This document shows, in pieces, positions 1,420 through 55,148 of a stretch of 64,000 nucleotides of DNA. The stretch comes from Escherichia phage vB_Eco_ZCEC15. Position numbers and translations under genes: made by a program. Position 1 is the first letter of the stretch, and each line of letters starts with the position of its first letter. The DNA is taken from sequence record PQ871103.1; one strand, written 5' to 3'. The notes beneath the pieces were generated by a model. That model had not been told where the DNA came from. It saw only the letters and a program-made list of their open reading frames with translations, and did not search any database.

Positions 1420-2847
1420 CTAAAATTTTAATTCATTCGCTAAAGCATCTAACTGAGCTCGAGCGGATTCGTTTCTTTGATAGCGATTCTGTTCAGCCTG
1501 AATCTGCTGTGAACCTGCTACTTCGTTCACTTCAGTTGGAGTAGAATCTTGTTCAATTTCTACCCATTTCTGATTTCCTTTTTGAACACCCATCAAAAAC
1601 TTATTCCATTTATTCTTATCACCGTATCGTGATTTGATTTGCTTAATGAGTTGTTGTTCAGCAGCTGCTAGCTCCTCGGTTTCAATGACCGCAAGCATAA
1701 AATCGGCTGTTGCTGGAAGGCCGGCAGATTCTGCAATATCGCTCATGTTAACATCAGAAGAGTCCCAAGCTTGTTTACCAACCTGTGCTGCGGTCCAAAG
1801 AACAGTTTCGGTTTCAACAGCCAGAGCACGCAATTCCTCTGCGATAGCTTTAACAGTTGTGTAACTATTTTCTGAATAAACTCTAATGCGACAAGATTTA
1901 CAAATACCCAGATAGTCAACAATAATGATTGTTGGAACAAAATTCTTCTTGAGCTTCAATTCATTCAAGAGAGACCTGAATGTATTAGCGTCTGCTCCAC
2001 CAGTAGGATACTGTTTAACGATTAAACGGCCGAGAGTAGATTTCTCACGCCATTTTTCCATTTTTCCTTTATACTCAGCGTAAGAAATATGCCCATCATC
2101 AATGTCATCAAGAGAAACATCAAGCATATTAGCGTCAATACGCTTAGCACAGACTTCTTCTGCCATTTCCATGGAAATGTAAAGAACATTATGTCCGAGC
2201 TGCAAATAATCTGCTGCCAATGAACACAGACCTAATGACTTACCGACGTTAACACCAGCCATTAAAACGTTCAGTGTTCCAGTTTCAGCTCCGCCTTTAG
2301 TAATTTTATTTAGAATTTTGAGTCTAAATGGAACCTTACGAGCTTTATTCATATAAGATAGCCAACGTGCTTCGTAGTCATCCATCCAATCATGACCAAC
2401 GTAACTATCAAATGAAATTGATAATGCTTGGCGCATGATGTCAGGAATAGCACCAACATCTGGCATTTTCTTATTTCGTTTTTCCGGAGGAAGCTCAGCA
2501 TTAGTTTGAATTTCAATTATTTTAGACGTAGCATTAAACATCGCCCTTTGCTGAACATATTTTTCTGTTTCTTTTACTAACCAGCTGTGGTCTTCTGGCG
2601 AATCGGCCAGTTTTGAAATAAGTGTTTTTACACCAGAATATTCTGTTTCAGTAAATGAACTATTTTCTAATGCAACATTTAACGCATTAATAGATGGAAC
2701 GCTATGGTATTCATTAACATGAGATTTAATTAATTTGAATGTATTTTTAGCTGGACCACTTTCAAAATATTCTGAATCCATATATGGCCAAACTTTTGAA
2801 AAATAAGCTTGATCAAATATGAGATGAGAAAGAATAATTTCTACCAC
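1420..2847 (-). CDS. 41: replicative DNA helicase gp41 (DnaB family), 475 aa
   Basis: Walker A GVNVGKS; length and sequence match T4 gp41. Confidence 0.95.
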   Translation of the reverse strand: MVEIILSHLIFDQAYFSKVWPYMDSEYFESGPAKNTFKLIKSHVNEYHSVPSINALNVALENSSFTETEYSGVKTLISKLADSPEDHSWLVKETEKYVQQRAMFNATSKIIEIQTNAELPPEKRNKKMPDVGAIPDIMRQALSISFDSYVGHDWMDDYEARWLSYMNKARKVPFRLKILNKITKGGAETGTLNVLMAGVNVGKSLGLCSLAADYLQLGHNVLYISMEMAEEVCAKRIDANMLDVSLDDIDDGHISYAEYKGKMEKWREKSTLGRLIVKQYPTGGADANTFRSLLNELKLKKNFVPTIIIVDYLGICKSCRIRVYSENSYTTVKAIAEELRALAVETETVLWTAAQVGKQAWDSSDVNMSDIAESAGLPATADFMLAVIETEELAAAEQQLIKQIKSRYGDKNKWNKFLMGVQKGNQKWVEIEQDSTPTEVNEVAGSQQIQAEQNRYQRNESARAQLDALANELKF

Positions 2848-2856
2848 ACTTACTCC

Positions 2857-3201
2857 TTAAAAGAATTTAAATTTTTTCTTTGACCTTTTATTAAATGCAT
2901 CTTGTAGTTGCATTGTAATACATTTTTCTACATGAGGAGCTAACTCAGCTTTTCTTTCTTGGTCAAGAACAGCAAAGTCCATTACGACTTTTCCATCAAC
3001 CCAATCTAATTTTGTCACATACACAATGTGTGTAGAACCATCTTCTAGTTTAATGACAATCTCCTGGATAACATTTTCCATGGCAGATTTAATTATCTTA
3101 AGAGATTCATTAAAAAGACGTTCTTTTCTTTCTTCTTCCCCCTCCGAAGAGGGGGATTCATCGATAATTTCTAGATCTAAATCTAAATCATCTTTATTCA
3201 T
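2857..3201 (-). CDS. 40: gp40 head vertex assembly chaperone (likely 114 aa from internal Met)
   Basis: Position between 41 and uvsX; ORF track gives 2857..3219. Confidence 0.65.
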   Translation of the reverse strand: MNKDDLDLDLEIIDESPSSEGEEERKERLFNESLKIIKSAMENVIQEIVIKLEDGSTHIVYVTKLDWVDGKVVMDFAVLDQERKAELAPHVEKCITMQLQDAFNKRSKKKFKFF

Positions 3202-7741: not shown

Positions 7742-7771
7742 ATAGTACCATAGAAGAACAGGGATGTAAAC
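7742..7771 (-). promoter_or_regulatory. sigma70-type early promoter (TTTACA-17-TACTAT on minus strand)
   Basis: GTTTAC -35 and TACTAT -10 read on minus strand; same module repeated at 50572..50601. Confidence 0.55.
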
Positions 7772-11033: not shown

Positions 11034-11597
11034 TTACCATTCCAATGCTAGTTTTTTGAGTTGTTTCTGTTCTTTTACGTTCTTAGTCACTTCTTTTAAA
11101 AAATCATCCGTGACTAAACCTTTTAGTTCTTTTAATACTAAAGGAAGTTTTCCATTTTTAGCAAGAATTGATTTATAGTTAATTGCATCATTTGTATTAA
11201 CTTGATACCGCTTAGCAAGTAACTTAATAATCAATACTTCAGTAGAATCTTCGACCAGTTTTGCCCATTTACCATATCTTTTACCCCGAGGAACAGCAGC
11301 CATCAGATAATTAAAATGGGCTTCATCGCTTAAACCTGATCCAATTAAATTCATAGCATATACAGCTGGCATGCACTCAGGAAATTGTGATAATGCATTC
11401 TCAACCATGTATTTTGAATAATCTTTTTGAGCAATAGAGCATTTAGTTTTATTATTAATAGCTCCAATTATTTCAAAAAATTCATTTTCAGCTTTTTCCT
11501 TAAAAGAATCAGCAGCAGATTGGACAGCTGTCCAATCTTTTGAATACCAAGCAACTTGATGCTCGTTTAATTGAATATCATCTTCAAATAAGCTCAT
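11034..11597 (-). CDS. 62: clamp loader small subunit gp62, 187 aa
   Basis: Length and position as in T4. Confidence 0.9.
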
Positions 11598-29924: not shown

Positions 29925-30926
29925 TTACTTAATTAACTGTAAAGCTTGTTCAAGACGATCCAGGCGATTAACAGATTCTTCCCAAATCCTTTTAGCTTGC
30001 TCATATTCTTTCTGCGCTTTATTAGAAATTTCTAGAACTTCTTTATAAGCTTTTTCTAATGCAATAACTTCTGGACGAATTTCTACCGGTTCAGGTGAAT
30101 CGTCAAGACATTCCATTAGTTCCTCAAGGGTAGTTTCTTCTTTAGGAGTATTCACAATTTCTTCACATTTTTGTTGATAAATTTCTTTATCAGTCGGTGA
30201 GTACGCACACTTTACTTCACGGAGACTAACTACAATTTTATATCCTTCCCAACCGCATATATTCTTAAAAGGATAAGTATGAATATTTTCTACTGTTTCC
30301 ATACAAAGTAATGCGGTCTCTAACTGACGAGTTATATCGCTAGCAATTGAGAAAAATTTATTAATGTTCTTTTGATTAGCTTCTGGTGTAAAAAATTCAT
30401 AATTCACAAAAATAGCTGCTTTATTTTTATCAAGTTCATATTCTTTTATGATAATCATATCAGAAGCCCAAGGATGAATTTGACGATAATCGCCATAGCA
30501 TAATTTAGAAGCTGATTTTAGAATTTGCTTTTTGAAAAGTCTGAAATTACTAATCCAACGACGAGTAAAAATATTCTTAGTGTCTTCTTTATTATTAAGA
30601 TGATATGAATTAACATCACCGAACCAATTATATCCTACTACATCTTTAGTTCGTTTAATTTCTTTCCCAAATTTACCGAGAATATCTTGGTTAACTAAAT
30701 ATGAAAGAAGACGAGAACCTTTGAAGGTTTCCTTAATATCATCTTTATATTCGCGACTAGAAATTTTATGAACTTCATGAATAAATTTGTTGGAAGAGAC
30801 AATACTTGCATCAGTATTATTGAGCCATTGATTGATAATGGAAATAACACTATTCTGACTAGACACAGGTTTAACTTTATCATCAATAACGCTATTGAAT
30901 GATTTGATATATTCGTTACGAGTCAT
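29925..30926 (-). CDS. hypothetical protein, about 333 aa from Met18, C-terminal coiled coil (paralogue 2)
   Basis: GAGGAG SD before ATG at 30926; motif RRWISNFRLFKKQILKSASKL shared with next ORF. Confidence 0.6.
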   Translation of the reverse strand: MTRNEYIKSFNSVIDDKVKPVSSQNSVISIINQWLNNTDASIVSSNKFIHEVHKISSREYKDDIKETFKGSRLLSYLVNQDILGKFGKEIKRTKDVVGYNWFGDVNSYHLNNKEDTKNIFTRRWISNFRLFKKQILKSASKLCYGDYRQIHPWASDMIIIKEYELDKNKAAIFVNYEFFTPEANQKNINKFFSIASDITRQLETALLCMETVENIHTYPFKNICGWEGYKIVVSLREVKCAYSPTDKEIYQQKCEEIVNTPKEETTLEELMECLDDSPEPVEIRPEVIALEKAYKEVLEISNKAQKEYEQAKRIWEESVNRLDRLEQALQLIK

Positions 30927-30983
30927 ATTAATCTCCTCAGTAGAAAGTAAGAACATTATACCACATCCTTGTGGCAAAGTAAA

Positions 30984-32006
30984 CTAGTTTAGTGCATTTA
31001 GTGCATTGTTCAGTTTAGAACGTTGCTTCGTAAGATTTTTGACTTTTTCTTGAGCTTTTTCTAGCATCTTTTCAGCTTCTAACACTTCATTAGTTGCTTT
31101 AACGAGTTCATCATCTACTGCCTTGATAGACTTCTCAATCGCATCCGCATGCCATTTTTCAACAGGTTTAAGACTCGGATTTTCAACAGGAAGAAAATTC
31201 ACTTTATTGAATTTCCATGCATCTTTATTACTTGAACTATACATCCAAAATTTAGGATCGTTTGATGAGTAATTGGATAAATTTAAGTTATCTTGCACTT
31301 CCTGCTTTTTCTCTTGTGGGACTTCGTCCTTTCTCAAAAAACCGTATTTAAATGAAACGATCATATCAAGTTCATACGTTGTTGTATGTTCCCAATTTCG
31401 CTCAAAATGAGGTAAAATCTTAGACTGAACAGCGGCAACAACATCCATATACTTAAATGCTTCTGTCAACTGTGATTTAAGGCATTCGCAAATTGAAAGA
31501 GAATTTTTTGTATTAGGTTTAAAGCTAATTCGCGCAGTTCTGTTATTTTCTTTTAATGGTCTTACTTCCATCTGAAGAGTATAACCATCAAATTTCAGGT
31601 TCTTTAAGTTAATGTCAGAACCTTTTAATCGACTAGCCGTCGACAAAATTTGCTTTAATTGTTTACGGAATAGAGCAATAAATCTCCATTCAAGACGGTA
31701 ATGATTTGGATTGAAAAATCCAGATGATAAATCGACCTTACTTTGGCCAACACCTTGAACAAATAGAGGATTTTTATAATCAATAGTTTTACAGAAATCA
31801 GTGAGCTGCTCACGAGCCGTCATTTGTGTAATATATCCTGCTTGGTTAAAATTGCGCACCCATTCACTGCTGTTCAGATGTTTAAAGGCATGAATGGAAC
31901 AATTAACTTTACCAAGGTCTAAATTATTTTCACACAAAAACGTCATAGCATCACGAGTATAGCTGGCATTACGAACCATATCTTCAATTTGAGAACGAGT
32001 TTTCAT
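30984..32006 (-). CDS. hypothetical protein, 340 aa, C-terminal coiled coil (paralogue 3)
   Basis: Motif RLEWRFIALFRKQLKQILSTASRL shared with previous ORF. Confidence 0.6.
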   Translation of the reverse strand: MKTRSQIEDMVRNASYTRDAMTFLCENNLDLGKVNCSIHAFKHLNSSEWVRNFNQAGYITQMTAREQLTDFCKTIDYKNPLFVQGVGQSKVDLSSGFFNPNHYRLEWRFIALFRKQLKQILSTASRLKGSDINLKNLKFDGYTLQMEVRPLKENNRTARISFKPNTKNSLSICECLKSQLTEAFKYMDVVAAVQSKILPHFERNWEHTTTYELDMIVSFKYGFLRKDEVPQEKKQEVQDNLNLSNYSSNDPKFWMYSSSNKDAWKFNKVNFLPVENPSLKPVEKWHADAIEKSIKAVDDELVKATNEVLEAEKMLEKAQEKVKNLTKQRSKLNNALNALN

Positions 32007-32014
32007 GGTATTCC

Positions 32015-32926
32015 TTAAGATTTAAGTAAATCGACAATTTTAATTAACTTTTCACGCTCAGATTTAGCTTTACTACTCAGTCCAGATAGTCTGAAAATTT
32101 CATCATCATATTGTTGAATAGAAATATTCAGCTCTTCAATCTGTTTATTAAAATAATCAATTTGTTCAGAATGTTTTTCGTTACTACGAACTGATACAGG
32201 TTTCGTAGGCAATGTAGTTGAACTGGATTCATCCGGGCGATAAATTAAAATACAACTTGAACCAATAGGGCATTTTGCACCAGATGAATATTCTAATGTT
32301 CCAGCTTCTTTTAAAACTTCAAAAGCTAAACAGAGATGATGCCCCATATTGACATAATCTGTAGAGCGAGCTCTGATATAATAATCATCTCCACGAATAC
32401 TAAATTTAAAGCATTTAAGGTCTTCTGTATTATTGGTCTTAAAAATCATTTGTTTATCTAGACCTTTAGCTAATCGAGCGCCTAATGCTAATAATCGTCT
32501 TTGATTTTCCCACAAATCCGCAATCATTTGATCGAATGATAATTTTGGCATTAGTCGACCATAAAGGTCATATCCTTTATTATAATTACGAAGGATTTCA
32601 CTCGCGTTAATACGAGACAATGCTCCAATTTTATTAAGGGCTTTCATAATGCGATTAGATAAACTCATTCCAGATCCGTTTGTTCGCTGCAAATGTTTTT
32701 CTAATCCAAATCCAATATCAACTTTAAACTTATCTAAAATTTCTGCATGAACATCTCTGTCAATAACATTCAAATCCAAAGTTGGGTTAAATCTATGAAA
32801 AAATTTATCCGGCTCTCCACGGCGAAATACAGTCCATTCATTCATCATTTTTTTATTAACTAAAGATTTAATTACTGCATTGACATTATTAATTACTACT
32901 GACATATTTTCCTCACTCAATTTCAA
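32015..32926 (-). CDS. hypothetical protein, 303 aa, C-terminal coiled coil (paralogue 4)
   Basis: ORF track. Confidence 0.6.
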   Translation of the reverse strand: MKLSEENMSVVINNVNAVIKSLVNKKMMNEWTVFRRGEPDKFFHRFNPTLDLNVIDRDVHAEILDKFKVDIGFGLEKHLQRTNGSGMSLSNRIMKALNKIGALSRINASEILRNYNKGYDLYGRLMPKLSFDQMIADLWENQRRLLALGARLAKGLDKQMIFKTNNTEDLKCFKFSIRGDDYYIRARSTDYVNMGHHLCLAFEVLKEAGTLEYSSGAKCPIGSSCILIYRPDESSSTTLPTKPVSVRSNEKHSEQIDYFNKQIEELNISIQQYDDEIFRLSGLSSKAKSEREKLIKIVDLLKS

Positions 32927-33320
32927 TTTTACTAAATATACAGAATAAGATGGAACAGACTATATAAGCACCACACACAGATTGAACTAATACCATTCCA
33001 AAGAACCAAACAATATTATCAAACAATGTCTGTTTTACGTCGAAAGGACGTAAACTTACAGTAATATTATCACCTTTTTCTATTGAAGAATACATCTCTG
33101 GGGAAATATATTCACTAAATCTATAACCGTCTTTTAGTTCATATACGGCAATAAACGATAAACTAGACCCTTTTCCTTGTGTTCCTGTAATGGTATTAAC
33201 TACAGTAACATCATAATCTTTATAATGCATATAATCATTAATTGCGTAATAACCATATGCAACTACTACACATAAACAACATATCAATAAATTCAATCTT
33301 TTAATTATCAACTGTTTCAT
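32913..33320 (-). CDS. membrane protein, 135 aa
   Basis: Two hydrophobic helices. Confidence 0.55.
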   Translation of the reverse strand: MKQLIIKRLNLLICCLCVVVAYGYYAINDYMHYKDYDVTVVNTITGTQGKGSSLSFIAVYELKDGYRFSEYISPEMYSSIEKGDNITVSLRPFDVKQTLFDNIVWFFGMVLVQSVCGAYIVCSILFCIFSKIEIE

Positions 33321-33375
33321 AATAATCTCAATTAAAAGGGCTTAGAACCATTATACCATCCTTGGTATAAAGCGG

Positions 33376-33903
33376 TTATGCGAGTACCGTCTTTAACCGT
33401 TCTTCAAACTTCCGAAGAGTATTTTGGCGTTCAGCTCTTTGCTTTTTGTAAGTTTCAATACGCTCTGAAATGAGAGTGTATCGTTCATTTACTGATTCTT
33501 TCATAAAATCAGGAATTTCACGAGAAGCTTTAATCTCGTCAAATTTATCAATAACAGCTTGCTCTTCAGCAATTAAGTTATCATACATTAAAATATCTTT
33601 CTTGATGAACTCAATATCTTCTTGAGTTACACGAGATAATTTAGATGCTTTATCCTTTTTGTACTGTTCGTTAGTATCACGAGACCAGTGTAATGTACGA
33701 TTTTTATTCGTATTCTTGTAAATTTCTACAATACCGATCTCATCAATAATAACGATCCAATTCCAACGGGATTTGTAAATTTGTCCTCCATCAACAGTGA
33801 TTTCACCTCCGATTGAGATGTCATTAAAGAACTTGCTTTGTGCCTCAGATTTAAATTTACCATCGTTGTAATTTACCAAGTTGAAAATATCTTTAGCGTT
33901 CAT
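33376..33903 (-). CDS. hypothetical protein, 175 aa
   Basis: ORF track; early promoter module and SD upstream. Confidence 0.6.
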   Translation of the reverse strand: MNAKDIFNLVNYNDGKFKSEAQSKFFNDISIGGEITVDGGQIYKSRWNWIVIIDEIGIVEIYKNTNKNRTLHWSRDTNEQYKKDKASKLSRVTQEDIEFIKKDILMYDNLIAEEQAVIDKFDEIKASREIPDFMKESVNERYTLISERIETYKKQRAERQNTLRKFEERLKTVLA

Positions 33904-33931
33904 TTTGTGTTCCTCCGTAGTTGATAGTTGT

Positions 33932-33960
33932 ATAGTACCACAGAGGAACAGTCTTGTAAA
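33932..33960 (-). promoter_or_regulatory. early promoter module (copy of 7742..7771 type)
   Basis: tatagtacca...tgtaaa on plus strand. Confidence 0.5.
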
Positions 33961-33963
33961 CCA

Positions 33964-34278
33964 CTAAAAGAAACTTCTTTCACAATTTTTTCCACTGAAC
34001 CATGCACTTACCGCTTTCTTGGTCTCAGGAGCAGTGTTATCCATAAACCATTCAAAGGCAGCCTTTTTGTGATTCTGGAGGGCTTCTCGGGCTTTAATCT
34101 GCTCACGGTCTATTAACACTAACATATGAGCCTTTCTTGTCACCATGGGCTTCTTATGATTTTTTGAATACTCCCAGTCATTTGTCCATCGCATTGTCGT
34201 TGCAAACTGAAATACTGCTTCTTTAATTTTAGTTTCGTAAATTTCACGAGCCTTTGAGTATAACATCATTACCTCCAT
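33964..34278 (-). CDS. hypothetical protein, 104 aa
   Basis: ORF track. Confidence 0.5.
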   Translation of the reverse strand: MEVMMLYSKAREIYETKIKEAVFQFATTMRWTNDWEYSKNHKKPMVTRKAHMLVLIDREQIKAREALQNHKKAAFEWFMDNTAPETKKAVSAWFSGKNCERSFF

Positions 34279-34367
34279 TCACCAGTTTAATTCTAGTCAT
34301 CTTTTTAATGGCAGTCCATATAATCTATTTCTGAACTGCCTTTTTGTTATAGAAGTCCTCTTATGAA

Positions 34368-35354
34368 TTATTTCAGAAGAGTAACCTCAGCGATTTCTTC
34401 CCAACCGTTTTTGTCGGTCATAATAAAGTCAGCAAGATAAAGAGCAGTACGCAGTGAAACATTGCGTAAACGATTAACATTAACTTTCATCCATGATAAT
34501 GCTTTATAAGTTTCTTCATCAGAAAGACCACGCTTTTGCATCATGTCAGTTGAAAGAATAACATCTTCAACCCTGACCATAATTTCTTCATTAGTGTGAA
34601 CACCCAAATCTAAATAAACCGAGCGGGACACTAATGCTTGTAAATGTGGAGCAAGTTTAGTACCACGGTCTAATTCGCGGTCAATGTCAACGTTTGTGAT
34701 AAAAACAATCGTTCCTTTAAATTCAAACTCACGCTCAATGCCTTTTTCTTCTAAGTAAGAAGACGCAGTGCTCCAGCAGACTTTACGGGTCTCTCCAGTG
34801 TCCAGAGCGGCTTTTAGAAGATTAAGAATGTCCATATCAGAGAAAACATCCACATCATCAATCAAAAGGACAGAATTCTCTTCACGATTATTCCAAAGCT
34901 GCTCATAAAGACCAATACCAGAGATTTTACCATTAATGCTTTTATATTCAATGTATCCAATATCATTTGCTTTATTTAAAGCTTTATCTAAAGAATACGT
35001 TTTACCAATACCTGCTGCACCAGAGATAATCAATGAACGAATATTTCCATTAATAATACCATTCGTCATCATTCCCATAACATTAAATCTTTTATTAATG
35101 CGGGTTTTCATATCTTCATATGATTCTTTAACTTCTTCAACTTTTACACCATCATATGAAATATCTGATTTGTAAACCCAAACACCGCGACGTTTACCGT
35201 CAATTTCAACAAAAACTTTACCATCTCCTTGTGCATCTACCGGAGCATTATCTGGGAACCATTCGCCTAAGAGCTCAAAAGTTCCAGAGATTTCTTTACC
35301 GAAGTAGATACCCTTATTGATAGTTACAGTTTTCATTTTATTCTCCAATTTCAC
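34368..35354 (-). CDS. P-loop NTPase, 328 aa (Walker A GAAGIGKT, Walker B LLIDDVD)
   Basis: Motifs read directly from translation. Confidence 0.65.
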   Translation of the reverse strand: MKLENKMKTVTINKGIYFGKEISGTFELLGEWFPDNAPVDAQGDGKVFVEIDGKRRGVWVYKSDISYDGVKVEEVKESYEDMKTRINKRFNVMGMMTNGIINGNIRSLIISGAAGIGKTYSLDKALNKANDIGYIEYKSINGKISGIGLYEQLWNNREENSVLLIDDVDVFSDMDILNLLKAALDTGETRKVCWSTASSYLEEKGIEREFEFKGTIVFITNVDIDRELDRGTKLAPHLQALVSRSVYLDLGVHTNEEIMVRVEDVILSTDMMQKRGLSDEETYKALSWMKVNVNRLRNVSLRTALYLADFIMTDKNGWEEIAEVTLLK

Positions 35355-35405
35355 ATTTGTTTTGATAGGGTAATAGTATCACACTACTACCCTACTGTAA
35401 ACAAT

Positions 35406-35669
35406 TTATTTTAGTGTTTGCCAAATTTTTACTGCTTCGCGACGAGATACTTCTACAGCTCCAAGTTCTACGGCTTTTTGACGTCGGCGAGCATGTAAGT
35501 CATAATGTTTAATGCGTTTATCTTGAAACCAAGAACGTTTCATTCCTATTGCTTCTGCCATTTCATGGAGCTCTTCAATATCTCCATCAGTGAACATATG
35601 ACAATTTTTAGTTAGATGACCGCGAAGTTTCCATCCATGATTCATTAAAACATCTACGTAAACTGTCAT
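35406..35669 (-). CDS. small protein, 87 aa, DUF4031-like
   Basis: Motif pattern GMKRSWFQ...HYDL...GA resembles the DUF4031 family as I recall it; stop overlaps upstream gene by 4 nt. Confidence 0.5.
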   Translation of the reverse strand: MTVYVDVLMNHGWKLRGHLTKNCHMFTDGDIEELHEMAEAIGMKRSWFQDKRIKHYDLHARRRQKAVELGAVEVSRREAVKIWQTLK

Positions 35670-36859
35670 TGATTCTGCTCCAAATATGTTTCTATAATTT
35701 TCTGAGCGAGATAAACTGCGTTATCTTCAGTTGCATCTTCTAAGAAATTTTCAAAATAAGCTGAAATTTCTTCTGTGTCAATCAACTTTTTTACTTCAAT
35801 TAACGTAGTTTTCATTTTATTCCCCAAATCCGTATCAGTTGATAGTTGTATAGTACCATATCGGTGGTTTTCAAGATAAACCCTCTCAAGGAAGTCATCC
35901 CAGAACCCCATGTCTACTTTTTGCTGCATACCGTTCTTAGAAGCTTCAATGGATGCTGCTTCTACTTGATCGACCACATCTTCCAAAAACTCTTGAACCG
36001 TTTTAAATGGATGTTTACCCAGCTTCACGTCGAGAATAAATGAAGCATCTTGAAGTGGATAGACCAAGTCACCAGTTTTGTAAATTTCCAATAGTTGGAG
36101 TCCACCACGACAAGCATGACTCAGGGCTTTCCAGTCAATGCCCTCATTCGCCTCAGCCTTACGAGCACGTTCGCCGTATTCAGCATCTAATTTGTTCAGT
36201 GACTGCTTAAGCTCAATAAGAGAAAGCGTTGTCTGATATTTACGACCCAACACCGTATAGAATGTTTGTGGGCCTGTTTTCTCATGATTATGGAATACCC
36301 ATTCACAGAATTCGTTTTCTGGAAGACGATGCTTAATATCTTCTACCTTAGTCCGACGTAAACGATCTGGAATGCCTTCTTGATAATCAACCCATTGTTC
36401 AGGAATCTGGTTAACAATTTCCAATACACCACGCAGTGCAGCCAATCGAGAACCCTTAACGCCGTATTTAGAAGCTTGCTTGCGAACATATCCTAAATAG
36501 GATTTCATGTTAGTCGTATAAAAACGAGAACGATTGTCTTGAACAAATTTCCATACATCAGGCAAATCAGATTTAACTACCAGTTCAGGTGGAGTGTGGA
36601 GCATATCCAATGCTACAGTTTCACCATCTGCTGCTAATTTAAAGAAATACTTAAGACTGTATAGTTCATGGTCAATATCATCTTTAGTGTTTTTAGATGA
36701 TGTGCTGTTAGTGTTTTTACTCATATGCTCTTTAACATTTCCGATAAGAATATCACGAGCAGGAGGAACAAAGATTTCTTTAAAATCTACATCAGATTCT
36801 GGAGTAGAAGTTCCATAAAGATGACTACCAAAATAGCTTTTCATTACTGTTTTCATCAT
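35666..36859 (-). CDS. Pol-beta-superfamily nucleotidyltransferase-like protein, 397 aa
   Basis: N-terminal GS-x8-DVD motif (YFGSHLYGTSTPESDVDF) typical of minimal nucleotidyltransferases. Confidence 0.6.
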   Translation of the reverse strand: MMKTVMKSYFGSHLYGTSTPESDVDFKEIFVPPARDILIGNVKEHMSKNTNSTSSKNTKDDIDHELYSLKYFFKLAADGETVALDMLHTPPELVVKSDLPDVWKFVQDNRSRFYTTNMKSYLGYVRKQASKYGVKGSRLAALRGVLEIVNQIPEQWVDYQEGIPDRLRRTKVEDIKHRLPENEFCEWVFHNHEKTGPQTFYTVLGRKYQTTLSLIELKQSLNKLDAEYGERARKAEANEGIDWKALSHACRGGLQLLEIYKTGDLVYPLQDASFILDVKLGKHPFKTVQEFLEDVVDQVEAASIEASKNGMQQKVDMGFWDDFLERVYLENHRYGTIQLSTDTDLGNKMKTTLIEVKKLIDTEEISAYFENFLEDATEDNAVYLAQKIIETYLEQNQ

Positions 36860-37341
36860 TCAGCCTTATATTCAATAACAGGACATACTTTAGCTTTATG
36901 CGCTTTTAAAAATTCGACGATAATAGATTTCTTGGGTTGAATAGGCTCAAGTCCATTTTTGATTCGTTCTTCGTTTTGTACAATGAGCTCAATTTCTTTA
37001 TTGAGCTTTCGGTCGTTATATTTGTCTAACAACCAGGAAGGACCAATTACCGCCCCGACAGCAATAAGAACCATGACCGATAATGCTAAAATGCCTATAC
37101 CAATTGAAGCTGGAATTAATGTCCATAGACTACTAAAGACAAAGAATTTAATTAAAATTTCTTGGCCAATTATTGCAGCACCTGTTAAAGTTGCAAATCC
37201 AACAATTGAAACCGCTAATACCGGGAGAAACGTTTTCCAAAAATAAGCACATAACGTTTTTGGACGATTCCATGTGCTGTTAAATGCCGAGTAAATTTTA
37301 AAGTGCCAAGAGTTTTCATTAATAATCATAATTATAATCAT
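36856..37341 (-). CDS. membrane protein, 161 aa
   Basis: Three to four hydrophobic helices. Confidence 0.6.
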   Translation of the reverse strand: MIIIMIINENSWHFKIYSAFNSTWNRPKTLCAYFWKTFLPVLAVSIVGFATLTGAAIIGQEILIKFFVFSSLWTLIPASIGIGILALSVMVLIAVGAVIGPSWLLDKYNDRKLNKEIELIVQNEERIKNGLEPIQPKKSIIVEFLKAHKAKVCPVIEYKAE

Positions 37342-37859
37342 CCTTTCATTGAAGGTGTAACAGTTGTTAAATACTTAATCATAGCTTCAGCTTCTGATTT
37401 TGATAATGAAATTTCTCCATTGTTTTGACGAATAGAAATAAAATCCGGATGACGGTCACCACCAGCTTTTAAAACACACATATAAGTATCAGTTTCATCT
37501 TCAATATCTGAAATGATTGAAGCAGTTCCACATGAATGTGGTTTTTGATAAATCAATACAGCTTTTCTTCCACCGTTTGACTGTTCATAAACTTTTAACA
37601 CATCAAACAAATCGCTTCTTTTATCAATAGCTAAGATGTTGTTTTCATCTTCAATATTAAATCCTTCGGATACTTCATAAAGTGTCACCCATAAATCACC
37701 AATATCAATAACAGCGTTCACTTTTCCATGACTTTCAAGAGCATTACAAATTTTCTTAATTTCATCATAACTCATTTTAATAATATCATCTCCTTGAATA
37801 AGGAAGATGTCATTTTTAAATTCAACACGAATTAAACCACTTCCACTTGAAATAAACAT
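37338..37859 (-). CDS. hypothetical protein, 173 aa (tandem paralogue A)
   Basis: C-terminus SKSEAEAMIKYLTTVTP resembles next ORF. Confidence 0.55.
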   Translation of the reverse strand: MFISSGSGLIRVEFKNDIFLIQGDDIIKMSYDEIKKICNALESHGKVNAVIDIGDLWVTLYEVSEGFNIEDENNILAIDKRSDLFDVLKVYEQSNGGRKAVLIYQKPHSCGTASIISDIEDETDTYMCVLKAGGDRHPDFISIRQNNGEISLSKSEAEAMIKYLTTVTPSMKG

Positions 37860-37865
37860 ATTTCC

Positions 37866-38420
37866 TCACTTTGAAATCATAGTTGGAATGACAGAATCAA
37901 GATAAGTCTTTAGCGCAATAGCTTCGTCTTTGGTAAATGTGACAATATGTGCTCGAGAATCATCAATTTGGCGAACAAGTACGACATCACCATCTTCATA
38001 AGAAGTTTTGACATCCAAAGTCGTAGTATAGTTTGCAGCTACTGGATTAATAATGCTAGCACTGCGATCTTTAGCCCATTGAAGTTTAGCCTTTTCGGAT
38101 GTTTCGGCTGATTCAGATTCCAAGAATTCTTTCACCTTAACAACGAATGTTGCCCAATTATCGATAGAAAGACACGCAAGTTCAGTTTCAATATTACCAC
38201 CGTGAGTGCCACGATAAAAACGAACTTGGAGGTCGCCTGTGATATTAGTTACACTGGTAACTCCTGAGGGAGTATAAGATAAAATCGCAGCTAGTTCCAT
38301 AGGAAGAATAGTAATACTATCGTCTTCCTGTGTCAGAACGTATGCATTACCACGTTTTTCGATAACTAGATCACCGAACAAATCAGTTGTTTCAATTACA
38401 GCTTTCATATTATTTACCAA
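37866..38420 (-). CDS. hypothetical protein, 184 aa (tandem paralogue B)
   Basis: C-terminus TKDEAIALKTYLDSVIP resembles previous ORF. Confidence 0.55.
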   Translation of the reverse strand: MVNNMKAVIETTDLFGDLVIEKRGNAYVLTQEDDSITILPMELAAILSYTPSGVTSVTNITGDLQVRFYRGTHGGNIETELACLSIDNWATFVVKVKEFLESESAETSEKAKLQWAKDRSASIINPVAANYTTTLDVKTSYEDGDVVLVRQIDDSRAHIVTFTKDEAIALKTYLDSVIPTMISK

Positions 38421-38604
38421 TTAAAGTTTCAATATAAGAATCAAGATGTACTTTAGCTTCTTCCATAAGAGTTTTGTATTTAATCTTAATCTTATTAGCA
38501 TGTCTGGAGAAAGCTGATTCTTCATCAATAACTGTTGATGCATGAACAGCTTTACTATAAATCTCAATTAATTCTCTTAACTCAAAAGCTTGTTCATTTG
38601 TCAT
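38410..38604 (-). CDS. hypothetical protein, 64 aa
   Basis: ORF track. Confidence 0.45.
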   Translation of the reverse strand: MTNEQAFELRELIEIYSKAVHASTVIDEESAFSRHANKIKIKYKTLMEEAKVHLDSYIETLIGK

Positions 38605-38767
38605 TACATGCTCCTTTGAATAATATCAATAATGTTGTTCACCAGATTATAAGTAAACATTGGGTAATTATATTGAATCATCACATACACAACAAACAAA
38701 ACTTTCATTCTCTTCTCCTTGGAAGTTGACAAGATTACTATATCATAACCTTGCCAACTTGTAAACC

Positions 38768-38941
38768 ATTAAATGACGTTTTCAATAAAATTCTGAAGCT
38801 TTGTGTGAGCATTAACCATGATTTTCATTTCTTCCTTTGCGAAAGCTGTACCTCTTTCTCGAGCAGAATACTCATAGTCAGAAACTGCATTAGCATATTC
38901 TTCAATTAGCTTCATTAAAAACATCTGCTTTTCAGTTTTCA
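38768..38941 (-). CDS. small protein, about 57 aa (own translation, MKTEKQMFLMKL...)
   Basis: Minus-strand ORF not in track; coordinates approximate. Confidence 0.3.
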
Positions 38942-39126
38942 TTATTCCACCTAATCATTTCAAGATATTGAACTAACTTAGCTTTGGATTTATCCAAATC
39001 CTTTTTAGCTGCTTCTATACCATCGTATGAGTATCCTTCACAATGCTCAACTGCTAATTGGTATGAATCTATTTCAATATCACGTGCTAATTTAATGATT
39101 TTTTCAAACTGTTCACTTGTCAGCAT
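38932..39126 (-). CDS. hypothetical protein, 64 aa
   Basis: ORF track. Confidence 0.45.
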   Translation of the reverse strand: MLTSEQFEKIIKLARDIEIDSYQLAVEHCEGYSYDGIEAAKKDLDKSKAKLVQYLEMIRWNNEN

Positions 39127-39128
39127 AC

Positions 39129-39368
39129 TTAAACTCTCGTATTATGATCGATAATTTCATCAAGAAACATATCTAAAGCTTCTACAGCATTATTAACTTT
39201 AGCTTCAAATTTTTCAATACCTTTATTTGCAATGCCTGCCGAAAACCAAGCAAAGTCACTAAGTTCCTCATCTGCTTTGCGAATTAAAGCTACCAATTCT
39301 TTAATTTTATCTGCTTGTTCAATTCTAGTCATTATTCCACCACATATGAAAGAGAGAATATTGCACAC
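39129..39368 (-). CDS. hypothetical protein, 79 aa
   Basis: ORF track. Confidence 0.45.
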
Positions 39369-39520
39369 GCCATATGAGTTGCAGCTTCATCACACATATC
39401 ATAACGTTTCTTAAGAAGTTCTACAAGTTCTTCACTAGTAACTTCATCCATGTCGACGAAAAAATCACCATTAATGATGACGTAGATATTTCCTTCTTGA
39501 TTGAGTGCTTCAATTTTCAT
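39332..39520 (-). CDS. hypothetical protein, about 62 aa from Met16
   Basis: GAGGAG SD before ATG at 39520; track gives 39332..39565. Confidence 0.45.
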
Positions 39521-39589
39521 GATGTTCTCCTCTTTATCCGATGGTTGTATAGTATCACGGCTCAAATTGAAAGTAAACTGGTAAAATGA

Positions 39590-39610
39590 AAAAAGTCTCC
39601 CGAAGGAGAC
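39590..39610 (-). terminator. intrinsic terminator (GUCUCC-UUCG-GGAGAC plus U-run on minus-strand RNA)
   Basis: Inverted repeat gtctcc/ggagac with cgaa loop and A5 on plus strand. Confidence 0.6.
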
Positions 39611-39615
39611 TAATG

Positions 39616-40002
39616 TTATTCGAGGGAAAGAAGATATTTGCTCTGGTAAAACATCCCAGTAATATCATCTATCGTGCTTTGAATGGCTGGAGGCATTTCT
39701 TTATAAATGCTGTTAGATTGGTCTAGTATGTGATCAATCATTTTAATTGTGTCGGTAGGAAGTTTACTGGCATCTGGAATAGAAGGCGTGTATTTTCTAC
39801 CAGAATACCCTAAATATTGCTCACCAAATTTATCAATCAAATCTGGCAATTCAGAGAAAATAAAATCGTATGCTTTGTGTCTAGCATAACTTTTAGTTTC
39901 AAAATGTGCAGAATGAAAATAAGCTTGTGCAGCCATTAATAAACCTAAGTATTCATCTGCCTTTGAAGGTTTTCCACTTTGTGAAAAGTCGCTGAATTTC
40001 AT
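39616..40002 (-). CDS. hypothetical protein, 128 aa (rI.-1 position)
   Basis: ORF track; position. Confidence 0.55.
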
Positions 40003-50263: not shown

Positions 50264-50581
50264 TTATTTCATATTATTGAAATATTCTTCTGCGATTTCG
50301 TCGTTATCATGGTAAACTTTAGAAGACAGTTTAACATAACCTTCTGCTGTGAACATATTAATCACAACTTTTACAGTATACCACTGACCGTCTTCATTAC
50401 CCATTACTGCGTAAGTTTCAAACATCGGATGATCAGGACCGATAACTTTAATATCATTCACTGTACGACCGAAATCTTCTGAAACGCATTTCATAAAGAA
50501 GTTGAACAGTTCGCCGTAATTATCCATTTCATTCTCCAAGTTGTTTTTCTGTATCAGTAGTTGATAGTTGTATAGTACCAT
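50264..50581 (-). CDS. hypothetical protein (likely 87 aa from Met19 at about 50527)
   Basis: GGAG SD precedes internal ATG; promoter module upstream. Confidence 0.5.
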   Translation of the reverse strand: MVLYNYQLLIQKNNLENEMDNYGELFNFFMKCVSEDFGRTVNDIKVIGPDHPMFETYAVMGNEDGQWYTVKVVINMFTAEGYVKLSSKVYHDNDEIAEEYFNNMK

Positions 50582-50601
50582 GGAAGAACAGGGATGTAAA
50601 C
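50572..50601 (-). promoter_or_regulatory. early promoter (duplicate of 7742..7771)
   Basis: About 80 bp near-identical to 7717..7800. Confidence 0.55.
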
Positions 50602-54464: not shown

Positions 54465-54495
54465 AGTAAATAGGGTAATAGTATCACTACCCTAT
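54465..54495 (-). promoter_or_regulatory. promoter-early stem-loop (PeSL-like) module: dyad AGGGTA/TACCCT around -10, GTTTAC -35
   Basis: Inverted repeat flanking atagtatcac core; compare 54763 and 55093. Confidence 0.5.
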
Positions 54496-54507
54496 CTAAA
54501 AGTAAAC

Positions 54508-54741
54508 TTATTTTTTACGAAAAATTGATTTATTTTCTGCTGCCCATTTTTCAATAACTGCAGCAGGACCAGTAACAACAATTTTATCACCGTAATCTTC
54601 TGCGGCGAGTTGACCGAAATTATCTAATGCATCACGAAGAACTCCATGAGGCATTTCACCCATTTTATCTTTCTTGCCAGTGTAAATAAACTCAACTTTT
54701 ACATCAGCAGTTTCAGCAATAAATTCTTGGTAAGTTTTCAT
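54508..54741 (-). CDS. internal-protein-like protein (about 77 aa from MKTYQEFIAE)
   Basis: N-terminus MKTYQEFIAE resembles the T4 internal-protein capsid-targeting sequence. Confidence 0.6.
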   Translation of the reverse strand: MKTYQEFIAETADVKVEFIYTGKKDKMGEMPHGVLRDALDNFGQLAAEDYGDKIVVTGPAAVIEKWAAENKSIFRKK

Positions 54742-54762
54742 TTTGATTTCCATTTGGTTTTG

Positions 54763-54795
54763 TTTTGATAGGGTAATAGTATCACAACTAAAACC
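54763..54795 (-). promoter_or_regulatory. PeSL-like module: dyad ATAGGGT/ACCCTAT around -10
   Basis: As above with different arm sequence. Confidence 0.5.
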
Positions 54796-54817
54796 CTATG
54801 TAAACAACTTTGTGAAA

Positions 54818-55075
54818 TTATTTTAAATCTTCTAATCGTTTCTTCATCTTAGAACCATTTTTAGCAATTTCTCCTGCATCGGAGCATAATGCTAAAAGTG
54901 CTTTAACTTTAGTTTGGTCTCCTTTAAAAGATGAAGGATCGACCGCAGCAGCAAGTTCTTTAATACGAGAGAAAAGACGCTCAGCTTCAGCTAAAGCCAT
55001 TCCAAGCTTTACTTCCATACCGTGGGAAGATTCAGTGATAGTAGTTTTTGTAGCAAACTCTTTGAAAGTTTTCAT
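54818..55075 (-). CDS. internal-protein-like protein, 85 aa, N-terminal MKTFKEFATK
   Basis: CTS-like N-terminus; flanked by PeSL-like modules. Confidence 0.55.
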   Translation of the reverse strand: MKTFKEFATKTTITESSHGMEVKLGMALAEAERLFSRIKELAAAVDPSSFKGDQTKVKALLALCSDAGEIAKNGSKMKKRLEDLK

Positions 55076-55092
55076 TTTTATTTTCCTAATTA

Positions 55093-55125
55093 ATTTTGAT
55101 GAGGTAATAGTATCACTACCTCATC
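55093..55125 (-). promoter_or_regulatory. PeSL-like module: dyad GATGAGGTA/TACCTCATC around -10
   Basis: 9-bp arms flanking atagtatcac; GTTTAC -35 at about 55122-55127. Confidence 0.5.
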
Positions 55126-55148
55126 AGTATGTAAACAACTTTGTGAAA

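Follow-up and report, generated by a model that had tools for sequence, protein, structure and literature searches.

We analysed a 64,000-nt stretch of the genome of Escherichia phage vB_Eco_ZCEC15 (sequence record PQ871103.1; the whole stretch is called the window hereafter), focusing on a block at positions 34368 to 37341 that an initial annotation had proposed as an accessory system of four genes. The window belongs to a Tequatrovirus (T4-type) genome and the block lies within the nrdC-to-rI hyperplastic region, in which all sizeable open reading frames (ORFs) between 31 and 40 kb are on the minus strand. The four proposed ORFs are real and lie on that strand (34368-35354, 35406-35669, 35666-36859 and 36856-37341), and our searches agree with the domains assigned to them: a P-loop AAA+ ATPase, a DUF4031 protein (PF13223), a Pol-beta nucleotidyltransferase (NTase; RlaP family, phrog_388) and a membrane protein. 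Comparison with related phages indicates that the block is very probably a stretch of independent early genes of the T4-type nrdC-to-rI region, namely T4 nrdC.10 and nrdC.11, a cassette associated with PeSL modules (composite terminator/early-promoter modules) and a membrane gene, plus a gene fusion private to this genome. The features are as follows.

34368-35336, minus strand: nrdC.10 orthologue, AAA+ ATPase, 322 amino acids from its most likely start (T4 identity, start context).
35357-35404, minus strand: PeSL-type module between the DUF4031 gene and nrdC.10 (promoter scan, pattern search, RNA fold).
35406-35669, minus strand: DUF4031 protein, 87 amino acids (Pfam PF13223).
35666-35815, minus strand: orf49, an acidic ORF of 49 amino acids, forming the C-terminal 49 residues of the fusion (phrog_6888; separate coding sequence in Shigella phage vB_SsoM_113).
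35816-35860, minus strand: former -10 element, 5' untranslated region (UTR) and ribosome-binding site of orf49, now the linker YGTIQLSTDTDLGNK (DNA alignment, translation).
35860-35861: junction of an 84-nt in-frame deletion (alignment with T4 and vB_SsoM_113).
35861-36859, minus strand: nrdC.11 orthologue, RlaP-family NTase, residues 1-333 of the 397-residue fusion ORF at 35666-36859 (T4 identity, PF10127).
36856-37341, minus strand: membrane protein, 161 amino acids, RB32ORF096c family (phrog_944, hydropathy).
34279-34367, minus strand: intergenic region 3' of nrdC.10, with a 9-bp hairpin (34310-34340) and a weak promoter-like site (34290-34318); a modest signal (fold z = -2.5).

The gene order in the T4 reference is nrdC.9, nrdC.10 (978 nt), nrdC.11 (annotated "nucleotidyltransferase", 1011 nt), mobD (an HNH homing endonuclease gene) and mobD.1. 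Mapped by blastn, window positions 30000-35348 correspond to T4 nrdC.4 to the start of nrdC.10 and positions 35861-36860 to nrdC.11. Positions 35349-35806 have no T4 counterpart, and positions 36861-37840 are replaced in T4 by mobD, which sits at the position of the membrane gene. This corrects the premise that T4 has no such genes: absence from T4 holds for orf49, the DUF4031 gene and the membrane gene (the latter two named RB32ORF096c etc. in an RB32-type relative), but T4 carries both the NTase (NrdC.11, NP_049709; 314 of 332 aligned residues identical, or 95%, over residues 2-333) and the ATPase (NrdC.10, NP_049708; 314 of 316, or 99%). An AAA match for nrdC.10 and a COG3541 nucleotidyltransferase match for nrdC.11 were reported earlier (Nolan et al., 2006). 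When the region 33900-37900 was compared by megablast with 50,697 phage records, 735 matched, nearly all of them Tequatrovirus and relatives, and in 117 of these at least 80% of the query was covered at one place. The block consists of known kinds of genes, with annotations in hundreds of T4-like genomes, and the NTase family and its likely role have already been published. Its G+C content is 0.34-0.42 against 0.29-0.38 in the flanks, with the maximum (0.40-0.42) over the NTase gene.

What sets the window apart is found at the 3' end of nrdC.11. DNA alignment showed that the window lacks 84 nt that are present in both T4 and vB_SsoM_113; positions 11367-11450 of the T4 locus (L001) have no counterpart, and the flanks of the deletion are 98-100% identical to the relatives. 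The lost segment comprises the last four codons and the stop codon of nrdC.11, an intrinsic terminator (GGGAGCCTTCGGGCTCCC followed by a T-run) and the -35 element GTTTAC of an early promoter. Since the deleted length is divisible by three and no stop codon interrupts the old 5'UTR, the frame reads through into the 49-residue ORF. This ORF normally stands as a gene of its own with a dedicated ribosome-binding site, and in vB_SsoM_113 it is annotated as a 150-nt coding sequence. The 15-residue linker translated from the former UTR contains the old orf49 -10 element TACTAT (35850-35855). The length of 397 residues listed for the NTase in the initial annotation is therefore the product of a deletion-fusion, the ancestral protein having 336, and relative to T4 NrdC.11 the last four residues are exchanged for a 64-residue extension (15 residues of translated UTR and the 49-residue ORF). 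PHROGs accordingly assigns residues 1-337 to phrog_388 and residues 349-397 to phrog_6888. The explanation is of use to annotators, who could otherwise take the odd length for a new domain architecture.

The junction between positions 35861 and 35860 appears to be unique to this genome. A 141-nt probe spanning it matched 423 phage records, and all 25 of those inspected required two pieces with about 84 extra bases in between; the exact 397-residue protein was absent from a large gene-position protein collection. This uniqueness could also point to an assembly or sequencing artefact instead of a real genotype, and the lost segment does hold a strong GC hairpin in a repeated promoter module, features on which an assembly could go wrong. 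We consider an artefact unlikely, given that the deletion is clean, exactly 84 nt long, in frame and set between nearly identical flanks, that in close relatives this PeSL site has been shown to be a hot spot of indels, and that natural indels associated with PeSLs have been documented (PMC2839356; PMC4122927). The sole window-specific feature is this deletion, which joins nrdC.11 to orf49 and takes out a terminator/promoter module. Descent from an ancestor resembling phage LF73P3 through loss of a 161-residue cassette was also considered and rejected, since the junction reads TATGG, the form of T4 and vB_SsoM_113, and LF73P3 has TGTGG.

If translated as predicted, NrdC.11 would be made in this phage as a 397-residue fusion to the orf49 protein, and expression of the DUF4031 gene would now rely on translational coupling and on transcription reading through from upstream. 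Within the fusion, orf49 retains its ribosome-binding site and ATG, so free orf49 protein may still arise. The initial annotation had also noted an overlap between the NTase and DUF4031 genes; it exists, as an ATGA at 35666-35669, with the opposite polarity, the start of the DUF4031 gene overlapping the stop of the NTase fusion.

The early promoter upstream of nrdC.10 (GTTTACA-N17-TACTAT at 35373-35402) is embedded in a 14-bp hairpin (35365-35395), and the RNA fold of the 35357-35404 module reaches -20.9 kcal/mol (z = -6.5), with none of 200 shuffled sequences as stable. Across the window, 0.18 matches to the pattern GTTTAC-N16-18-TAYWAT would be expected and 16 were found, every one on the minus strand; examples elsewhere are 888-917, 7742-7771 and 50572-50601, and three lie within 660 nt at 54478-55136. 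A promoter embedded in a hairpin is the signature of PeSLs, to which the shuffling of modules within hyperplastic regions of T4-type phages has been ascribed (Arbiol et al., 2010, PMC2839356; Comeau et al., 2014, PMC4122927), with the T4 consensus TTTACW-N17-TAYWAT (PMC4122927). The modules in the window resemble them in combining a terminator hairpin with an early promoter, in being duplicated around ORFs that some close relatives have and others lack, and in lying in a hyperplastic region. They differ in that one PeSL here is mostly deleted, leading to a gene fusion and not to a clean gain or loss of a cassette.

In T4, the early promoter, the ribosome-binding site and ATGAAAACT directly begin nrdC.10. 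In the window and in vB_SsoM_113, the module of promoter, ribosome-binding site and ATGAAAACT instead begins orf49, and a second copy (GTTTACA-N17-TACTAT and, further on, GGAGAATAAAATGAAAACT; repeat family D4) follows the DUF4031 gene and begins nrdC.10, so that promoter, ribosome-binding site and ATGAAAACT are duplicated on either side of orf49 and DUF4031. LF73P3, the closest relative (97.7% identical), has at the same site an extra ORF of 161 residues flanked by two terminator-promoter copies. This ORF (L013 positions 2543-3028, minus strand) has no Pfam match and is inserted exactly at the PeSL site deleted in the window. Comparison of T4, vB_SsoM_113, LF73P3 and Klebsiella phage JD18 indicates that orf49 and the DUF4031 gene were inserted between nrdC.11 and nrdC.10 by recombination at duplicated PeSL modules. 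A single PeSL site can thus be seen in four configurations (that of T4, that of the RB32/vB_SsoM_113 type, that of LF73P3 and, in the window, the deleted one), providing a clean example of cassette turnover.

The initial annotation had seen repeated promoter/stem-loop modules as the boundaries of the whole block. The modules are real and act as cassette borders here; what they delimit is orf49 and DUF4031, and not the four-gene block. One module lies inside the block (35373-35402), another was destroyed by the deletion, and the nearest copies outside are at 33932-33961 and 39549-39578.

Both members of the cassette have recognizable families. The orf49 protein, with 49 residues and a net charge of -7, matches phrog_6888. 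The DUF4031 protein matches PF13223 with 77.2 bits (cut-off 25.6, E = 1.2e-21, 73 of 76 model positions covered), and its structure model has a pLDDT of 92. Residues D6, H24, Q49, H55-Y56-D57 and G70 are invariant in 34 relatives, of which the D/H/H-Y-D set could be a catalytic or metal site. No T4 match to the DUF4031 gene was found by blastn. In JD18, a 54-residue ORF (gp073) that is 42% identical to orf49 lies directly upstream of a DUF4031 gene, and the order there is membrane gene, three ORFs, NTase, two ORFs, ATPase, six ORFs, and then the 54-residue ORF with DUF4031, placing the cassette about 2 kb downstream of the ATPase. Therefore orf49 and DUF4031 form a conserved pair at differing positions, and they can be flagged as such in T4-like phages; the pair is a mobile two-gene cassette absent from T4, with orf49 as its first and DUF4031 as its second gene. 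Beyond the T4-likes, DUF4031 genes occur in early and DNA-metabolism regions of phages and prophages, together with methylases, ThyX, dUTPase, RNase T, SSB and DUF5131. No NTase or ATPase was found near DUF4031 in five unrelated phage or prophage contexts. A partner resembling orf49 upstream of DUF4031 outside the T4-likes was rejected, the upstream ORFs in four other contexts being unrelated.

The ATPase matches phrog_1250 and, weakly, several AAA families. Besides the AAA+ core and a helical lid, it has a beta-rich domain at its N-terminus (about residues 1-62), and Walker A, Walker B, sensor 1, Arg finger and sensor 2 are all present. The length of 328 residues first assigned to it presupposes the GTG start at 35354; the most likely start is the ATG at 35336 behind a GGAG ribosome-binding site, giving 322 residues as in relatives. 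The gene shares with T4 nrdC.10 its promoter, ribosome-binding site and start context and its product the Walker A/B, sensor and Arg motifs, and differs in being preceded by the orf49-DUF4031 cassette and not directly by nrdC.11. BFVD fold matches include AAA+ proteins of a Roseobacter phage and of uncultured phages (32-37% sequence identity, TM ~0.7). As a side observation, the C-terminal 6-9 residues of NrdC.10 do not align between the window (322 residues, ending EVTLLK as in most relatives; 34368-34390) and T4 (325 residues; L001 10344-10373), as would result if the T4 reference sequence carried a small frameshift or indel near the 3' end of the gene.

The 161-residue membrane protein matches phrog_944 ("membrane protein", E = 5e-50). 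Hydropathy places hydrophobic stretches at about residues 35-60 and 62-105, followed by a charged C-terminal tail, which suggests two or three transmembrane helices. Like the DUF4031 protein, it is a clear member of its family (RB32ORF096c/phrog_944) by profile score, and both families are common in T4-like and other phages. The membrane protein shows strong allelic divergence among close phages, being 55% identical to its RB32 homologue, 79% to that of AV116 and 99.4% to that of LF73P3. ATGA overlaps couple its gene to an upstream y05I paralogue and to the downstream NTase.

For the NTase, RlaP (PF10127, "RNA repair pathway DNA polymerase beta family") is the sole Pfam family over threshold (42.7 bits, cut-off 23, E = 7e-11, residues 7-135), and the match to the phrog_388 "nucleotidyltransferase" profile is strong (E = 4e-133). 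The homologous relatives retrieved all bear a precomputed PF10127 match. The catalytic signature originally noted is present in its GS and DxD elements, with a spacing of ten residues (G11-S12-x10-D23-V-D25) rather than eight. Among 30 relatives of 34-56% identity, there is no variation at G11, S12, D23, D25 or D63, and conservation of D85 reaches at least 90%, which bears out the further conserved acidic residue that the initial annotation had raised; D63 or D85 is a candidate for the third carboxylate ligand. In its conserved GS, DxD and downstream Asp and in its place upstream of nrdC.10, the protein agrees with RlaP and T4 NrdC.11.

The GS...DxD motif is generic to Pol-beta proteins, and a signalling or toxin-type enzyme (CD-NTase/cGAS-like, MenT-like or antibiotic NTase) was weighed against RNA-end repair. 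This is extremely improbable: NTP_transf_2 reaches only 13.5 bits, under its cut-off, the 3,413 family representatives at 50% clustering align full-length and colinearly, and scans of all four proteins with PADLOC (E <= 0.01) and NCBIfam gave zero matches, including to CBASS CD-NTases and other defence NTases.

RNA repair or counter-defence, which the initial annotation had proposed for the NTase, is the best functional reading for this protein alone and agrees with a Pol-beta domain with conserved catalytic carboxylates. The NTase is not undescribed, contrary to what the initial annotation had proposed for the block. T4 NrdC.11 has been named as an RlaP-family member (cluster 5, function unknown there) in a 2025 preprint (bioRxiv 10.64898/2025.12.29.696909), a role of phage RlaPs in RNA repair is discussed in PMC7824862, and the same prediction was made by Iyer et al. 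(2021). According to the preprint, two Pseudomonas RlaPs (from P. fluorescens and P. aeruginosa) add one or two nucleoside monophosphates (NMPs) to an RNA 3'-OH, preferring damaged RNA; the proposed role of RlaP is to restore nucleotides lost to "smart" ribotoxins such as RloC before ligation, and the 3'-OH product suits 5'-phosphate ligases. The crystal structure of PfRlaP shows a C-terminal helical domain whose last helix packs back onto the NTase domain. By analogy with the characterised Pseudomonas enzymes, the most likely activity of NrdC.11 is to extend the 3'-OH end of broken RNA by one or two NMPs. The phage Pnk and RNA ligase could then reseal tRNAs that are also missing the nucleotide excised by a RloC-type anticodon nuclease, as family membership would suggest. 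T4 classically counters the PrrC nuclease with its Pnk/Rnl1 repair pathway, and an extension of this pathway by NrdC.11 is the best-supported mechanism that we infer; whether T4 RlaP lets this pathway handle nucleotide-excising anticodon nucleases has already been posed in the literature. The name RlaP itself reportedly goes back to Burroughs and Aravind (2016).

The phage protein differs from bacterial RlaPs in falling into a separate sequence cluster (cluster 5 of the preprint) and in that its gene does not adjoin an RNA ligase or RtcB gene. Pfam and PHROG scans, which took in the nine ORFs between 32913 and 38420 and left out the small ORFs further upstream, gave no RNA-ligase, RtcB or Pnk match. 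The RNA-repair genes of T4 are located elsewhere in its genome. Searches at other levels were likewise negative: an Rfam scan of 32000-40000 matched no RNA family, and PDB sequence searches (single proteins, and profiles of the NTase and ATPase) returned nothing meaningful.

The initial annotation had joined the membrane protein, NTase, DUF4031 protein and ATPase into one co-functioning accessory or counter-defence system. The genes are indeed adjacent on one strand, with ATGA overlaps running from the y05I paralogue through the membrane gene and NTase-orf49 to DUF4031, and most of the 4-kb block is found in at least 117 phage records. Counted by tblastn against the phage collection, however, the homologues differ widely in number, with 1,520 records for the NTase, 1,311 for the ATPase, 1,194 for the membrane protein (including Pseudomonas and Vibrio ICP1 phages), 324 for DUF4031 and 164 for orf49. 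Host distributions differ as well: Klebsiella phages have 286 NTase and 149 ATPase records, Vibrio phages 59 and 121. Because these counts differ, the position of the cassette varies and components occur alone, the genes do not form one system. Only two of the four genes are present in T4, JD18 carries the cassette elsewhere, DUF4031 and ATPase homologues are found without the others, no PADLOC match was obtained, and the tight coupling of NTase and DUF4031 exists only through the private deletion, a terminator and promoter having ancestrally lain between them. A single four-gene system is thus highly improbable.

A smaller association was also considered. NrdC.11 and NrdC.10, possibly with the membrane protein, could form a functional pair or trio in which, for example, the ATPase remodels substrates such as damaged tRNA or ribosomes or hands them to the NTase. 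In T4, JD18 and Acinetobacter phage Ac42, NrdC.11 is followed by NrdC.10 with zero to two small ORFs in between (53-68% protein identity), and RB32-type phages, JD18 and Ac42 have a membrane homologue immediately upstream. Adjacency is weak evidence here, as conserved genes usually keep their order in T4-like genomes. The record counts differ by genus, which implies many genomes with only one of the two, and no NTase was found within 5-8 kb of the ATPase homologues in the KVP40-like Vibrio phage PC-Liy1 and in two metagenomic/genomic loci (L008 and L010). The fold relatives of the ATPase in Roseobacter and uncultured phages also speak against the pairing, and bacterial RlaPs are linked to RNA ligases and not to an ATPase of the NrdC.10 type (bioRxiv 10.64898/2025.12.29.696909). 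We regard such a pair or trio as improbable. Similarly doubtful is that the block holds either a module of NrdC.11 and NrdC.10 (perhaps with the membrane protein) restoring RloC-excised tRNA nucleotides before Pnk/Rnl ligation, or, in orf49 and DUF4031, a cassette of an enzyme and its acidic partner acting in host takeover or counter-defence.

Independent early genes of known kinds, together with the private fusion, are therefore the reading that we prefer, and several points weigh against it. Tequatrovirus, Jiaodavirus (JD18) and Ac42, a phage of another subfamily, all keep the order membrane protein, NrdC.11, NrdC.10. The RlaP match covers the N-terminal half of the model only (positions 23-142 of 249), and no solved structure matched the NTase in the PDB sequence and profile searches. 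Being ordinary conserved T4 genes, the outcome that would speak against the initial annotation, applies to the NTase and the ATPase, both of predicted function, and not to the DUF4031 gene, which T4 lacks. Gene order is generally conserved in T4-like genomes. The retained order is expected from this synteny and leaves a small chance of a functional link among the three genes.

Upstream of the membrane gene, the window carries two tandem paralogues of the y05I/mobD.1 family (37338-37859 and 37866-38420, minus strand), matching Pfam T4_y05I_N and T4_y05I_C ("putative transcription factor", E from 1e-31 to 1e-35). T4 annotation has mobD.1 alone at this site, and the second paralogue (RB32ORF097c) occupies the position of mobD in T4. 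Five small minus-strand ORFs of 64, 57, 64, 79 and 77 residues follow at 38410-39565, corresponding to mobD.2a to mobD.5; several start with similar helical motifs (e.g. ..EQ...L..LI..Y..A), suggesting a tandem array of small paralogues.

In many GenBank records, the label "thioredoxin" is given to nrdC.10, nrdC.11 and adjacent genes, and T4 mobD.4 as well as a coding sequence under the match in several relatives carries the label [quoted passage not shown]. Both labels look like errors spread from the gene names nrdC.x and mobD.x, and not from homology.

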